64,000 nucleotides of DNA from Candidatus Babeliales bacterium (lineage in GTDB: Bacteria; Babelota; Babeliae; Babelales; JANWKD01), in the NCBI GenBank assembly GCA_963722075.1, contig CAVRJM010000001.1, positions 1,120,001 to 1,184,000 of the forward strand, in the 5' to 3' direction. Made by a program: the position numbers and the translations under genes. Shown in pieces: positions 1,815 through 61,334 of this stretch (position 1 is its first letter; every line of letters starts with the position of its first letter). The notes under the pieces are model-generated. The model was not told where the DNA came from and made no database searches. It saw only the letters and a list, made by a program, of their open reading frames with translations.

Positions 1815-1889
1815 GCGGGAATAGCTCAGTGGTAGAGCGTTGCCTTGCCAAGGCAAAGGTCGCGGGTTCGACCCCCGTTTCCCGCTCCA
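1815..1889 (+). tRNA. tRNA-Gly(GCC)
   Basis: GCGGGAA..TTCCCGC acceptor stem, TAGCTCAGTGGTAGAGC D-arm, TTGCC/ttGCCaa/GGCAA anticodon arm, GGTTCGACCC T-arm, encoded CCA. Confidence 0.97.
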
Positions 1890-2038
1890 GTCTTCGCTCC
1901 TACGGAGCTTCGCCTGGCGCCGCCATTTTTTTAAATGAAGATAATATTATTAGCACAGTGAAAAGCGAAGACTGTCCGGCATAGCTTGTAGTAACGAAGC
2001 AATTGATAAGGGTCAAAGCAGAAAGCGCCGACGGACTA
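1889..2038. repeat. Type-B palindromic repeat pair abutting the tRNA 3' end
   Basis: AGTCTTCGCtcctacggAGCTTCGCCTGG pairs with GCGAAGACTGTCCGGCATAGC...GACGGA. Related halves occur at about 8764, 15725, 25733, 55992 and 56131. Confidence 0.65.
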
Positions 2039-2054
2039 TAAATATATCTACCTT

Positions 2055-2297
2055 ATATATTATGTTTACATTATCAAATCGGTTAATTTTCCTGGAAAAA
2101 TATATATTGGCTATACCCTCAATATAAAAACGCGATTACAGACGCATAATGATGGTGGATCAACTTTCACTAAGGATTATAAACCATGGGAAGTAATCTT
2201 TTATGGCACTTTTCAGAATAAATTGAAAGCATTAAACTTTGAAAAATACTTGAAATCCCATTCAGGTAGAGCATTTTTAATAAAACGATTATTATAG
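2055..2297 (+). CDS. Small GIY-YIG nuclease (YhbQ/UPF0213-like); ATA start or start-mutated pseudogene; absent from ORF track
   Basis: IYYVYIIKSVNFPGKIYIGYTLNIKTRLQTHNDGGSTFTKDYKPWEVIFYGTFQNKLKALNFEKYLKSHSGRAFLIKRLL*, with YVY/YIG, RL..HN.G, FT....PW and A...E..LK motifs. No ATG/GTG/TTG in frame upstream before the TAA at 2007-2009. Confidence 0.85.
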   Translation: MYYVYIIKSVNFPGKIYIGYTLNIKTRLQTHNDGGSTFTKDYKPWEVIFYGTFQNKLKALNFEKYLKSHSGRAFLIKRLL

Positions 2298-2407
2298 GCA
2301 GCCATTTTCTCTTAAATGAGGAATATCGTGACGCGATAACCCAATTATGGTACATTCTAAAGTAGTAACGGTAGCTATTTTTCATAGTTAGCAACCTTTT
2401 AATCTGA

Positions 2408-8296: not shown

Positions 8297-8693
8297 TAGT
8301 TTTTCCAACTTTACCAACAACAATAATAACACCTGCTAATCCTGCTGATAATACTACCCCCGCACCTACTGAAAATGTTAGAATACGCGCAAAATCGACA
8401 GCAGATCCTATTGGAGTGCGTTGTGTTCTTGTATAAGAAGCATGAGAATTTATTGGTGGAAAGTGATCAGAGTAATTTGATAATTTAAAAGTAGTTATTG
8501 TGCGAAATTTTTCAATTATTTTGTTGGATAAAACAATACCAAAAATAGTTTCTGCAGGTCTAGTAGTCTCTTTTTCGCCTATTATTATCTCTTGCCTTTT
8601 CCATTTTGTTTTTTTGACAGCAAAAGAAGAGAAAGGTAAGAACAAGCCAAATAAAATGAGCGCTAAGCAAATCTTTTTCATAAAAAACTCCAT
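8265..8693 (-). CDS. Secreted/membrane hypothetical protein, tandem family member 4
   Basis: Signal peptide, C-terminal hydrophobic helix, shared ATGGAGTTTTTTATGAA leader. Confidence 0.7.
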   Translation of the reverse strand: MEFFMKKICLALILFGLFLPFSSFAVKKTKWKRQEIIIGEKETTRPAETIFGIVLSNKIIEKFRTITTFKLSNYSDHFPPINSHASYTRTQRTPIGSAVDFARILTFSVGAGVVLSAGLAGVIIVVGKVGKTITSFLQSRTH

Positions 8694-8700
8694 TTAATAA

Positions 8701-8839
8701 CTGGATCCTCACGTCGCTCACGCTCCTCAGGATGACAAATAACTCAAAATGTTATTCCGATCCAGCCCTCGCTCAAAGAGCTTCGACGGACAAGGCGCTT
8801 ACCTCGTCGAAGTTTTAATGTAGACGGGTGGGAATCCAG
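8701..8839. repeat. Type-A palindrome pair, second unit interrupted by a type-B insert
   Basis: CTGGATCCTCACGTCGCTCACGCTCCTCAGGATGAC ... GTTATTCCGATCC[insert]TGGGAATCCAG. Confidence 0.85.
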
Positions 8840-8840
8840 A

Positions 8841-9335
8841 TTATTTACTTTGACTAAACCAATCACCTAAAGCGCCATATTGATACTGCCAGTAACCATA
8901 TCCCCCAAATGCGCCAATCAATGCTGCAACTGTCGTTGCACACAATCCTTTAAAGAGCGGCGAAAAGGTCGTATACCTATACCCAGCTGCGGCCAAATCG
9001 ATTTGCCAAGCAGTGGCAGTCGGATTAGTAGCAGTAGGATTTTGAACCAGTCCAAACTGAGAATTATTGATACTACAATTTCTAGCCATCAACATTCCAA
9101 GCACCCTTACACTGTAATTAACTTTTACAGAATAGTTTTCTTGCTGATTAACAAAGATACTTCCAGAATTTGGTACCTCCTTTGCAAAAATCTGTGGGTA
9201 AGCCCATTTACGAGCCTCACGATATTGTTTTGGCCCTTGCACATAATTTCGAATTGCTTCCATCGTATAATTTGATGAAATAAAACTCATAGATAATATT
9301 AATGCAAATACGATTCTTTTCATTTTAATCTCCAT
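8841..9335 (-). CDS. Secreted/membrane hypothetical protein, tandem family member 3
   Basis: Signal peptide followed by MEA; C-terminal TM with GAFGGY. Confidence 0.7.
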   Translation of the reverse strand: MEIKMKRIVFALILSMSFISSNYTMEAIRNYVQGPKQYREARKWAYPQIFAKEVPNSGSIFVNQQENYSVKVNYSVRVLGMLMARNCSINNSQFGLVQNPTATNPTATAWQIDLAAAGYRYTTFSPLFKGLCATTVAALIGAFGGYGYWQYQYGALGDWFSQSK

Positions 9336-9821
9336 TTAATAACCACCAAAATGACCATAATCCCATTGAGTACCAGGAGTTGATTCAACAACGGTAGGCT
9401 TAGAATAAATTTTACGTGCCAAGTTTTCTGCCATTTTTAAGGCAGAAGAAACAATTGATGAATTTCTTGCTGCGTACAATCCCAATCCAGTAGCTACTGC
9501 TCCAAAAAGCACTTTAGCCCGTAAAGTCCAATGCGGCAAACCAATTTTGATATTACTATACGTGGGATCAACTTTCTCGGCGCCAAGGTAACAACCGATC
9601 ATTTTTTCTTTTAATACCACCGGTTTCGTTTTCAATACAAACCCTAAAAATGTGCTTTCTGGCACATCACCTTCATAGGTTTTAATTTTATCAATGAGAT
9701 TTTCTTTCGTTGTACACGTACCGTATTTTTTAACATATGCTTTTTGGTAATCTGTAAGCATGCCATAGGAAAAACTGATAACCGAACTTAAGACAAGAAA
9801 TAAAAAAATATACTTGTTCAT
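9336..9821 (-). CDS. Secreted/membrane hypothetical protein, tandem family member 2
   Basis: Signal peptide near-identical to member 1 (KYIFLFLVLSS.IS.S); ends DYGHFGGY. Confidence 0.75.
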   Translation of the reverse strand: MNKYIFLFLVLSSVISFSYGMLTDYQKAYVKKYGTCTTKENLIDKIKTYEGDVPESTFLGFVLKTKPVVLKEKMIGCYLGAEKVDPTYSNIKIGLPHWTLRAKVLFGAVATGLGLYAARNSSIVSSALKMAENLARKIYSKPTVVESTPGTQWDYGHFGGY

Positions 9822-9832
9822 AAAAACTCCAT

Positions 9833-10501
9833 TTAATAACCACCAAAGTGAAAGTAATCCGAATTGCTAGACACTGACGATGTGACCGTTTTAGTTAAAG
9901 GCGCTGACGACTTTGAAAATAACCCCTTTAATCCGTTTACTAATTTTTCTCCAACTGAACTTTTATAAAGGCATCCTAGCCCTAATGCGCATGCAGCTCC
10001 CAGTAATAATTTTGTTTTTAAACACCAATGACTCAAGTAAATATGTTCAACCAAATAGTGCTTATCTTGTATCCATCGGTTATTTTCTTTAGTAAATCGT
10101 TCGCTAAATGATATTGGCTTTACAGACCATACTAAACCAAAAAAACGTGTGCAGGGAGTATCATATTTATAGGTACGAATCTGTGATCCATCTTTTTCAT
10201 TCTCTATTGAGCAAACACCATGCTGTCTTATAAATTCTTTTACTTCAGGAGAAAATGTTCTAAAACTATCTAGATTCATACGGAGGTTATTAATACTCAT
10301 TCCATTTAATAATCGAGATGAATCATTTTGCCAACCATTTGAATTATTGTTGCTTAAAAAACAATTATTGAAGGTAACGTCAACCGTTTGATCATCGAAT
10401 TGTATATTAGCTTTGCCATCCAATTGCATACTAAATGAATAAGAAATGGGAGAACTTAAGACAAGAAATAAAAAAATATACTTTTTCATAAAAAACTCCA
10501 T
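9833..10501 (-). CDS. Secreted/membrane hypothetical protein, tandem family member 1
   Basis: Paralogous to 9336-9821 (L.HW.L..K.L.GA....G); ends DYFHFGGY. Confidence 0.75.
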   Translation of the reverse strand: MEFFMKKYIFLFLVLSSPISYSFSMQLDGKANIQFDDQTVDVTFNNCFLSNNNSNGWQNDSSRLLNGMSINNLRMNLDSFRTFSPEVKEFIRQHGVCSIENEKDGSQIRTYKYDTPCTRFFGLVWSVKPISFSERFTKENNRWIQDKHYLVEHIYLSHWCLKTKLLLGAACALGLGCLYKSSVGEKLVNGLKGLFSKSSAPLTKTVTSSVSSNSDYFHFGGY

Positions 10502-10632
10502 TTTAAAAAAGAATTACTTCTATAAAAAAGTATATTAAATAATAACAAAATGTCAATTACAAATGCTTATGTAGCGCTTATTAATTGACAAGTAGAAAAC
10601 TTTACAAAGAAATTAAATAAGCTAATTAAAGC

Positions 10633-11003: not shown

Positions 11004-12263
11004 ATGGAAAAAAAAACCCCTCTTTTACCTTTATTACCGGGCGTATATCTCTTTAAAAAAGATAACGAAATTTTGTACGTGGGTAAGGCAAAATGCCTTA
11101 AAAAACGGGTGCAGTCTTATTTTCAAAAACAGCATACCGATTGGAAAATAGATTCGCTTATAAAAGAATATACACACATCGATCACATAATTACCCATAG
11201 CGAAATGGAAGCACTACTGTTAGAAGCCCAATTAATTCGCGATAATAAACCTTCTTATAATGTGCTTCTTAAAAGCGGTCAGCCATTTTTATATATTTTA
11301 TTTACTAATACTGATCCGCGACAAATTGTTTTAGTGCGTAATAAAAAGAAGAAGGGAATTTATTTTGGACCTTTCTTGCGCAAATTACAAGCACGCAGCG
11401 CGTATGCCTATATAATGAAAACATTTAAATTGACCATGTGTACCGCTAAAATAGAAAACGGCTGCTTGAATTATCATTTAGGTATATGTGCAGGAAACTG
11501 TATGTCCACTTTTGATCTTGAAGGATACCGCTTACGCATTGAACTGGCATTAGATTTGTTACAAGGGCATTATAAAGAATCATTAAAAAAGTTAACCGCA
11601 CAAATAAAAACGTATACCCAACAACTAGAATTTGAAAAAGCACGCACCATTCATTATTATGTGCAAAATCTTGAATCGATTTTTGAAACGTTAAAAACAA
11701 AATTTTCTGAAAAAAAATATGAGCGAGAAATCTTCTTAACAACAGCGCCTATTGATAAAAAATTAATACAAGATCCGCACATGGCACGTAAAATTCAAGA
11801 AGTGCTTCAGCTTCAAAAAGCACCCATTACCATAGATTGTTTTGATATTTCCCATTTTCAAAGTAGTTATATGGTTGGTTCTTCAATTCGTTTTAAAAAT
11901 GGTATCCCCGATAAAAATAATTTTAGGCGCTTTAAAATCAAAACATTAACGCAACAAAACGATTATGCAGCGCTGCAAGAAATTGTAACGCGACGATATA
12001 AAAATCCTGCAGATATTCCAGACCTTATTCTCATTGATGGCGGTAAAGGGCAACTGAATGCTATTACTGCATTATTTCCTGATTGCCAAGTAGTGAGCTT
12101 AGCAAAGCGAGATGAGCTTATTTTTGGGCCTCATTTGAGTGAACCAATACCTATTACTACTGCTCAAGAAGCAGGAAGGCTCTTAATTGCCTTACGCGAT
12201 TATGCACATCATTTTGCAATAACCTATCACAAGTTACTGCGCAATAAGCATGCTATTGAGTAA
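11004..12263 (+). CDS. uvrC: Excinuclease ABC subunit C (short form)
   Basis: GVYLF..ILYVGKA..L.KRV.SYF GIY-YIG domain; CFDISH, NDYA, LILIDGGKGQL, RDYAHHFA RNase H-like domain; no C-terminal HhH. Confidence 0.92.
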   Translation: MEKKTPLLPLLPGVYLFKKDNEILYVGKAKCLKKRVQSYFQKQHTDWKIDSLIKEYTHIDHIITHSEMEALLLEAQLIRDNKPSYNVLLKSGQPFLYILFTNTDPRQIVLVRNKKKKGIYFGPFLRKLQARSAYAYIMKTFKLTMCTAKIENGCLNYHLGICAGNCMSTFDLEGYRLRIELALDLLQGHYKESLKKLTAQIKTYTQQLEFEKARTIHYYVQNLESIFETLKTKFSEKKYEREIFLTTAPIDKKLIQDPHMARKIQEVLQLQKAPITIDCFDISHFQSSYMVGSSIRFKNGIPDKNNFRRFKIKTLTQQNDYAALQEIVTRRYKNPADIPDLILIDGGKGQLNAITALFPDCQVVSLAKRDELIFGPHLSEPIPITTAQEAGRLLIALRDYAHHFAITYHKLLRNKHAIE

Positions 12264-15549: not shown

Positions 15550-15758
15550 CTGGATCCTCACGGTGCTACGCACCTCAGGATGACATTCGTTAACCTGTCA
15601 CTCTGAGGCCGTTATACCGTAGGAATCCAATTATAGAATTAATTCATTATTGTCATCACGAGCTTGCGTGGTGATCCATTAATAAAATTCATTACCTCTA
15701 TTTGTAGCCTGGATTGCTTCGTAAGCCATGTCCGCCGAAGCCCCTGGATCGCAACGAC
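15550..15758. repeat. Cluster of four type-A palindromes, the last with a short type-B insert
   Basis: Units at 15550-15584, 15597-15629, 15652-15678 and 15708-15758. Confidence 0.85.
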
Positions 15759-25723: not shown

Positions 25724-25823
25724 GTCATCCCGATCCGCCGCCGCGCAGCTTTGGAGATACAAGGCCTATCCCATCGAAGTTATTTATTCCGCTTTTGTCA
25801 TCCCGAGCTCGCGTGGGGATCCA
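25724..25823. repeat. Type-A partial unit with type-B insert, plus a full type-A unit
   Basis: GTCATCCCGATCC[...] followed by GTCATCCCGAGCTCGCGTGGGGATCCA. Confidence 0.8.
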
Positions 25824-55923: not shown

Positions 55924-56177
55924 CTGGATTCTTACGGCTTAACAGCCTCAGAATGACAATGGGTTCTCTAAAATGTCATCCTGAGGAGTGCGCGTCCGAC
56001 TTTGCTAAGGCTACGCCGGATTCCGTAATAGCAAGCGCGTGTCCGGCGTAGTTCTAAACGGAGACGGAACGTAAGGATCCAGTGAATAAATAAATCGAAA
56101 ATTAATAACGGAACCTGGATTGCGTCAACAAGCCATGTCCGCCGAAGCTCCGCGAGCGAAGGCCGGATTGCAATGAC
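55924..56177. repeat. Three type-A palindromes, two with type-B inserts
   Basis: Units at 55924-55957, 55975-56082 (long insert) and 56114-56177 (short insert). Confidence 0.88.
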
Positions 56178-61039: not shown

Positions 61040-61334
61040 ACCATTATTATATATATATATTAAATATTAATAATAATAAGCGCAGCGATTTTTGTGGATA
61101 ACTGGTCAAATTTTTTTAAAAAAGCAAGGTAAAACCGCAGTTTTTTGATTTTTTTCCAATGTGGATAACTATGTGGATAGAATGTGGATAACTTCGACCA
61201 TAGGTTCTCAAAGCTGCGCTTAAAGCCATGTTGTAAGCGCATAGTGTCCTAAGCACCTTGTTTAAGCCATTATTCAACCCATGAAAAAGTTATCCACATA
61301 GTTATCCACATAGTTATCCACATAGTTATCCACA
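61040..61334. other. oriC: Probable chromosomal replication origin (oriC)
   Basis: DnaA boxes TGTGGATAA at 61093, 61160, 61172 (1 mismatch) and 61183; TTATCCACA at 61290, 61302, 61314 and 61326; adjacent AT-only tract at about 61043-61079. Confidence 0.85.

Follow-up and report, generated by a model that had tools for sequence, protein, structure and literature searches.

The window, a stretch of 64,000 nt (C1:1120001-1184000), belongs to a Candidatus Babeliales genome of 1.47 Mb that has a G+C content of 35% and is 99% complete. One of its loci carries, in order, a divergent ruvA, an unnamed ORF, a tRNA-Gly gene, a jag-like gene and an mnmE-like gene, the last labelled by eye from its translation. 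The tRNA-Gly(GCC) gene (1815-1889, plus strand; ARAGORN, Rfam RF00005) is intact, encodes its CCA at 1887-1889, and is the host target of a small cassette composed of a pair of type-B hairpins and an 80-aa GIY-YIG ORF. All of the parts named in a preliminary description of this DNA, including a hairpin pair that takes in the CCA, are present by ARAGORN, by sequence and by a match to PF01541. The tRNA-Gly gene stands directly before jag in 29/29 relatives. A tRNA-integrating genomic island was considered and rejected, as the 518 nt from tRNA-Gly to jag hold only hairpins and the 80-aa ORF. An Rfam scan of the window returned the tRNA only.

The left half of type B (1887-1925, plus strand), delimited by sequence and covariation, is a hairpin whose outer stem is the tRNA CCA paired with TGG at 1915-1917. 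It has an internal TTC/TTC loop (GAA/GAA on the other strand) and a TGGC/GCCA mini-hairpin tail that runs up to 1925. An AT-rich spacer follows (1926-1963, plus strand), which differs in length and sequence among copies, and then the right half (1964-2036, plus strand), in which a perfect 11-bp inverted copy of 1888-1898 (1964-1974) leads into an inverted B-type hairpin of the form GTCC...GGAC (1974-2036). The nuclease gene, a single domain, occupies 2055-2297 on the plus strand. Immediately after its stop, the remains of a direct copy of the left half's tail and the first part of the spacer (2297-2319, plus strand; by sequence) are likely the right junction of the cassette. A motif resembling the left half is found 3' of the gene at 16 of 104 loci, a few of these probably by chance.

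The triplet that follows the CCA occurs in nine forms among 83 distinct full elements. It is Watson-Crick complementary to the right-half inverted copy in 75/83 and to the left hairpin's closing arm in 60/83. When 34 distinct triplet sets are considered, 26 pair with the right-half copy and 22 with the left arm, against shuffle means of 5.0 and 3.1; none of 2000 shuffles, which ignore kinship, reaches the observed counts. The internal loop is invariant: one strand reads TTC/TWC and the other GAA/GWA, and purine loops of the latter kind form stable sheared G-A pairs. A predicted RNA fold pairs 1888-1898 with 1964-1974 and preserves the cloverleaf. Since the best-kept helix (75/83) is a perfect inverted repeat, its covariation would look the same for a function in DNA as for one in RNA. 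A pseudoknot between B and the right half was set aside, being weakly conserved (19/83).

The 80-aa protein matches PF01541 with an E-value of 3e-15 and has the fold and the catalytic Tyr, Tyr, Arg, His and Glu of the GIY-YIG superfamily. In an alignment of 28 sequences, Y5, Y17, G19, R27 and E63 never vary and H31 is nearly invariant. Residue 38, a Phe here, is His in 81 of 104 homologues, Tyr in 12 and Phe in 2 (9 unparsed). The AlphaFold model has a pLDDT of 95.6, and the best PDB matches in sequence and predicted fold are HIGLE, Slx1 and UPF0213. Homologues are 80-140 aa long within the length window searched, and the closest protein matches come from Ca. Babeliales / Dependentiae. NCBIfam profiles gave only a weak UvrC match and the ESM Atlas only generic GIY-YIG clusters. 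Viral contigs searched with one narrow pattern and plasmids searched with the 80-aa protein yielded no relative, each a weak negative. The gene is under purifying selection, with pN/pS of 0.02-0.28 in 8 close pairs of copies and 0.12 over 19 Bradyrhizobium copies. Elsewhere in the window, a second GIY-YIG domain (11040-11261, plus strand) lies in a 434-aa open frame that is probably uvrC or part of it.

As had been noted from the sequence, the ORF begins with ATA, and no in-frame ATG, GTG or TTG occurs upstream as far as the preceding stop. An ATG, GTG or TTG is found at the same or the previous codon in 101 of 104 distinct homologues, and the ATA start is unique to the copy in the window. The copy is for this reason probably weakened, that is, weakly translated or decaying; the suggestion that ATA is a down-tuning change fits the start codons of the homologues, and a single G-to-A change would be its simplest origin. 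Contigs from four read runs leave 1936-2085, and with it the start codon, uncovered. The genome holds four copies of this nuclease. Three are on C1, each 100-200 nt behind a tRNA end: that behind tRNA-Gly with the ATA start, one behind tRNA-Glu with an internal TGA, and one behind tRNA-Gln with an intact ATG (C1:371244). The fourth, on C4, is frameshifted and follows a hairpin that has no tRNA. Such changes in three of the four copies, an ATA start, an internal TGA and a frameshift, are a decay pattern typical of selfish genes.

Type-B hairpins at tRNA ends and the distribution of the gene

Type-B hairpins anchored on a CCA follow 26 of the 37 tRNA/tmRNA genes of this genome when scored by script (28 by eye), compared with a background of 816 of 36,748 CCA positions on C1 (2.2%). 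An identical hairpin is common to many tRNAs here, with its inner part flipped in some. In a short variant of the left hairpin, the interior occurs in both orientations between identical CCAG/CTGG ends, as an inversion by template switching would give (C1:283795, 503069, 622266 and 972654 versus 328280, 587564 and 749248).

Within the window, gene-less type-B sequence is found in palindromes of a second kind, type A (CGTC-type). A type-B hairpin is nested in a type-A palindrome pair at 8736-8830 (approximate limits), a type-A palindrome at 15711-15758 (minus strand) contains a partial type-B half, another at 25724-25822 (plus strand, by eye) has degenerate type-B inserts, and a type-A pair at 55975-56175 (approximate limits) holds three nested type-B halves. 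By script the halves lie at ~8780, 15741, 56052 and 56148, and by eye a degenerate one lies at ~25724 and another at ~56000. These places, four by script and two by eye, come near the five other loci reported previously. The accompanying statement that B halves always sit inside type A holds in the window and fails genome-wide, given the B hairpins behind 26/37 tRNA/tmRNA genes. Of the B arms scored across the genome, 54/92 are nested in type A, which indicates that B also lands in other hairpins. The window contains two further repeats: four dispersed AT-rich direct repeats of ~50-70 nt, spaced 500-670 nt apart (8651-10516), and a 12-nt tandem repeat (61288-61334) with TTATCCACA, which we take to be the DnaA-box consensus, so that a replication origin is possible there.

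Homologues of the nuclease occur in 127 of 201 genomes of the phylum. A tRNA or tmRNA gene lies on the same strand within 450 nt upstream at 20 of the best 29 Babelota loci (the window's own locus excluded) and at 61 of the best 80 of 472 cross-phylum loci, a set drawn from Babelota, Alphaproteobacteria, Desulfobacterota, Verrucomicrobiota/Lentisphaeria and Ignavibacteria; type B is found upstream of the gene at 26/29 and 73/80 of these loci. The two sets overlap, with 104 distinct genes in 110 loci when the window's is included. A sister clade of the same protein size, used as a control, gave 0/29 for tRNAs and 1/29 for type B. The expected enrichment of homologues at tRNA 3' ends and next to these palindromes is thus borne out, at cross-phylum protein identities of 53-72%. 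A single tRNA-Ala(GGC) site in related Alphaproteobacteria accounts for 43 of the 61 tRNA-linked cross-phylum loci, and without it the count is 18/37. The copies at this site are vertically inherited with a pN/pS of 0.12, for which domestication is an equally good fit. At six of the loci behind tRNA-Ala(GGC), in Bradyrhizobium and relatives (L040, L051, L059, L080, L084, L102), hairpin units are arranged head to tail like an array; the units start within the left hairpin, and the sequence between them varies before the gene.

At least 15 tRNA/tmRNA identities serve as targets in Babelota. Forty-two further copies, taken from 40 regions of multi-copy genomes among the matches listed (150 of 275), include 21 behind a tRNA or tmRNA and 39 with the B motif under a looser pattern. 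Sites that are not tRNA genes mostly end in an acceptor-like ...RCGCCA or ...RCACCA, and by eye many resemble decayed tRNA tails. Ten such sites (L004, L007, L009, L016, L180, L188, L189, L195, L207, L208) have in common a motif of ~70 nt upstream of the cassette, which ends in ...RCGCCA/RCACCA and is an open frame on the opposite strand; it possibly represents decayed att sites of integrative elements. Rfam gave no match at the 8 non-tRNA landing-site loci scanned. Two loci have unusual arrangements: at L196 (G053) a long hairpin splits the T arm of a tRNA-Arg-like gene upstream of a nuclease copy, and at L023 (G081) nuclease cassettes stand in tandem, separated by ~20 nt that duplicate the 3' tail of tRNA-Arg, and with the right hairpin 3' of the gene rather than before it.

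Comparison of orthologous sites supports the earlier proposal that the tRNA end is a landing site. At the tRNA-Gly-jag locus of 29 relatives, the gene is present in 0/29 and a hairpin directly after the CCA in 4/29, and all four relatives from the same family are empty of both. Filled and empty orthologous sites therefore coexist, as they do for mobile elements, and, likewise as in mobile elements, recent copies at different sites share an end, the left one at the CCA, with a ragged right end. One genome (G180) has three copies, at tRNA-Glu and two non-tRNA sites, whose proteins are 96-99% identical, and another (G065) has a pair at tRNA-Arg and tmRNA that are 88% identical in protein. In these two genomes and in G160, DNA similarity between the copies begins at the CCA (or a few bases earlier), extends through the gene and ends raggedly ~25-150 nt past the stop. 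In a G187 pair similarity begins later, in the tail, and for a pair in the present genome it is confined to the tail and what follows it. Of 58 copies from multi-copy genomes, just 14 find their nearest neighbour within their own genome, which indicates that most copies are old and that recent spread is a minority. We established no clear case of target-site duplication.

The number of hairpins varies with the presence of the gene. Matches to a tRNA tail followed by CCA, NNN and TWCG have a median of 9 in the 127 gene-positive genomes (2 with none) and of 1 in the 74 gene-negative genomes (31 with none); every gene-bearing cassette itself adds one count, yet the medians exceed the gene copy numbers. 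Counts are higher with the gene in 11 of the 12 families that have both states, one family (f2) being reversed. At least 3 hairpins are still present in 23/74 gene-negative genomes, and 33/201 genomes have no match at all. These 201 genomes are kin rather than independent samples, and many are incomplete MAGs.

Type A palindromes and the Ssn-like nuclease clade

A Pfam scan of the genome revealed a further three small GIY-YIG genes, all of them lying between inverted type-A hairpins: C1:1398408-1398695 (minus strand), 140112-140399 (minus strand) and 1361604-1361855 (plus strand), at loci L111, L115 and L116. The gene at C1:1398471 is intact, that at 140175 has an altered motif and that at 1361604 is broken. 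These genes are the likely partner of the ~200 CGTC-type repeats of this genome, where the type-A pattern has 201 matches. Over 57 aa, the cassette protein shares 32% identity with the genome's Ssn-like protein. A tree of 124 rows (sequences with stops or shorter than 70 aa excluded, 20 of the 80 cross-phylum loci used, and inner branches rough) recovers the split between the cassette clade and the type-A-flanked clade in 100/100. The Ssn label of the latter clade is taken from layout, protein size, strict matches to the published SRM pattern at 4/29 loci, and known features of the family. If the label is right, the split speaks against placing the cassette protein in cd10448. A search of phages with the Ssn-like protein found no relative, a weak negative.

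With a relaxed pattern, type A is found at 17/29 loci of the Ssn-like clade versus 0/109 of the cassette clade; among the Ssn-like loci, a stem test scores 13/29 where the sequence pattern scores 17/29. The strict SRM pattern likewise gives 0/109 for cassette-clade loci versus 4/29 for the Ssn-like control loci. Genomes with at least five type-A copies make up 32 of the 45 that have an Ssn-like gene versus 9 of the 156 that lack one, and 7 of the 95 that have the cassette gene only, with nine weak matches (E above 1e-12) scored as negative for the Ssn-like gene. Types A and B are thus each tied to a nuclease clade of their own, and because type A tracks the Ssn-like clade, the cassette gene is likely the engine of type B only. 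In this genome the strict published SRM pattern has 2 sites, no more than chance gives (0-3 in four controls). The type A of this genome is therefore a variant that the published pattern does not cover, and it is filed by layout.

The preliminary description had offered the 80-aa nuclease as a candidate engine of the dispersed palindromes in general, a role comparable to that of RAYT for REP repeats. We regard an extension of this idea to all of the palindromes, type A included, as very improbable. B halves do nest within type A (54/92 arms), but type A flanks none of the 109 cassette-clade loci against 17/29 Ssn-like loci, at least five type-A copies are found in 32/45 Ssn-like-positive genomes against 7/95 with the cassette gene only, and the three Ssn-like genes of this genome are themselves bracketed by type A. 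The reading is largely refuted, and a role of this gene in spreading most of the dispersed palindromes is not supported, since type A has a GIY-YIG clade of its own that both flanks and tracks it. For type B, the genomic context and copy number (median 9 vs 1 in 201 genomes) agree with an engine of this kind and with the expectation that repeat number follows the gene, while cleavage would be as in related enzymes. Other engines were excluded. The sole Y1 gene, an IS200-type transposase gene at C1:156495-156854 (L219), has its own terminal hairpins and no flanks of type A or B, which removes RAYT as a candidate; a reverse transcriptase was rejected because a PF00078 search of the 99%-complete genome found nothing.

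Known systems and a possible route of spread

The nearest counterpart that we found is Ssn (SsnA, cd10448), a small GIY-YIG gene tied to NTS/SRM hairpin repeats in an arrangement, NTS-ssnA-NTS, that the available text of its description likens to a mobile element (Chenal 2025, PMC11893778). The cassette resembles it in being a small single-domain GIY-YIG gene (80 aa, within the <~150 aa of Ssn) with its own hairpin family, and Y5, Y17 and E63 appear to correspond by position to Y6, Y17 and E64, which that text gives as required in SsnA. In layout, however, it is type A with the genes at C1:1398471, 140175 and 1361604, rather than the cassette, that resembles NTS-ssnA-NTS as described there: the cassette hairpins are both upstream of the gene, whereas those of Ssn are on both sides, and the cassette is anchored on a tRNA/tmRNA CCA, whereas 'tRNA' is absent from the main text of PMC11893778. 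Type A also fits the CGTC-tagged REPs, GTC-headed hairpins with a CCA tail that often form inverted pairs (Di Nocera 2013, PMC3733652, in the part of the paper available). Of the unpaired CGTC/TGTC head, 8-9 bp stem and CCA tail that define those REPs, type A has the head and type B lacks it; type B differs further in its internal TWC/GWA loop and in using the tRNA CCA as a stem, and the available part of PMC3733652 describes no link to a nuclease or to tRNA ends.

The likeness to REP/REPIN-RAYT and IS200/IS605 HUH systems, as far as the available descriptions of these go, is that of an autonomous gene with many gene-less hairpins and of hairpin ssDNA as the likely substrate. The cassette gene is, however, a GIY-YIG gene and not a repeat-flanked HUH/Y1 gene, and the cassette target is fixed at tRNA ends. 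GIY-YIG enzymes are hydrolytic and have, to our knowledge, no strand-transfer step, so joining would need host repair. Slx1, At-HIGLE and UPF0213 (BH0048, EF2693) are the best matches of the protein, yet at 26-36% identity; unlike Slx1-type enzymes, it has no Slx4 partner or RING domain and is present in several copies per genome, in a cassette. SegB of phages T4/T6 is a free-standing GIY-YIG homing endonuclease in tRNA clusters that spreads via cleavage and host repair. The cassette shares with it a GIY-YIG gene near tRNA genes (PMC13096335, available part) and differs in that its nuclease has no DNA-binding domain or single target allele, but has cognate hairpins and at least 15 tRNA targets, on cellular chromosomes. 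Three further candidates from the literature were rejected on the parts of the sources available: a tRNA-downstream palindrome of M. kandleri (PMC5217627) and Geobacter repeats (PMC2700814) are unrelated in sequence, and 'tRIP' is the name of an island-screening method. In the literature searched, which had subscription papers and two supplement files of PMC11893778 outside its scope, no tRNA-CCA-anchored hairpin cassette with a GIY-YIG gene is described. The pairing of type A with an Ssn-like gene matches a published system (Chenal 2025), and for the tRNA-end cassette we found no description. The cassette would work like an Ssn/SRM or REP/RAYT pair, yet it probably belongs to neither.

We favor, with some reservation, the interpretation that this is a small selfish cassette residing at tRNA/tmRNA CCA ends and spread by its GIY-YIG nuclease; the gene likely carries the cassette between tRNA genes. 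Judging from SsnA and Slx1, the protein may bind the hairpin as ssDNA, probably the strand with the GAA/GTA internal loops, and may nick near the CCA junction, with the same two enzymes as the guide to the strand and cut site. After that, host repair would prolong the tRNA tail from its freed end, copying a donor by way of the few acceptor-end bases that the two have in common. Copying by repair would leave the tRNA intact, the left end fixed and the right end ragged, 25-150 nt beyond the gene. Gene-less hairpins would spread in trans, and in this genome the enzyme could come from the ATG copy that follows tRNA-Gln (C1:371244). This mechanism fits the fixed left end, the ragged right end, the intact tRNA and the lack of an integrase, RAYT or reverse transcriptase. 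Against this interpretation, half of the secondary copies (21/42) are behind non-tRNA sites; because these sites often resemble decayed tRNA tails, island integration could have moved those copies.

Alternatively, the hairpins may serve the host as a tRNA 3'-trailer, in which the CCA of the precursor is masked by a long helix that acts as a signal for processing, stability or termination, with the nuclease as a domesticated partner. A fold that pairs 1888-1898 with 1964-1974 and leaves the cloverleaf, a helix that covaries (26/34 vs a shuffle mean of 5), and the persistence of the gene under purifying selection at tRNA-Ala(GGC) in many Bradyrhizobium species are what such a role would lead one to expect. 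We nonetheless think it unlikely: the hairpin is patchy at orthologous tRNAs (4/29), 33/201 genomes have no match, B halves nest in type-A repeats distant from RNA genes, gene copies are often broken, and SsnA is inactive on RNA according to the available text of PMC11893778. Spread might also be passive, through gene conversion of tRNA tails, template switching or duplication of att sites with islands, the nuclease being a passenger that became linked once. That hairpin number tracks the gene in 11/12 families, that gene and hairpin remain linked across phyla at 53-72% protein identity, and that the sister clade follows the same one-nuclease-one-hairpin logic with a different repeat all speak against a passenger and make this rather unlikely, despite the many tRNAs here that carry an identical hairpin, inverted in its interior at some of them as expected from template switching, and the many gene copies behind decayed tRNA-like tails.

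We give little credence, finally, to a form of ssDNA restriction that guards tRNA ends. It would account for hairpins exactly at tRNA attachment ends, and SsnA is described as modulating the integration of transforming DNA that contains its repeat (PMC11893778, available text), but the arrival of hairpins at new tRNAs and the fixed left end of gene-bearing copies would go unexplained. Returning to the selfish cassette, a more far-reaching version, which we put forward tentatively and with slightly more doubt than belief, is that it represents a new class of autonomous element of ~400 bp without integrase, transposase or reverse transcriptase. An 80-aa ssDNA nuclease would recognize a hairpin and the tRNA/tmRNA CCA, host repair would copy the cassette, and gene-less hairpins would have been seeded across phyla; two nuclease-hairpin systems would exist side by side in this genome, one nesting in the repeats of the other.

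The cassette would add to Ssn another family of very small nucleases guided by hairpins, one that differs in its repeat and whose landing site, the tRNA CCA, is both universal and safe. With a protein of 80 aa, a substrate of 150 nt and carriers in culture (Bradyrhizobium, Rhodopseudomonas), the spread of palindromes without a transposase can be put to a direct test. Were the enzyme a sequence-specific ssDNA nickase acting at tRNA ends, it might also be a useful tool. Moreover, the tracking of each repeat by its own nuclease across one phylum lends support to a role of Ssn-type enzymes in propagating CGTC repeats.
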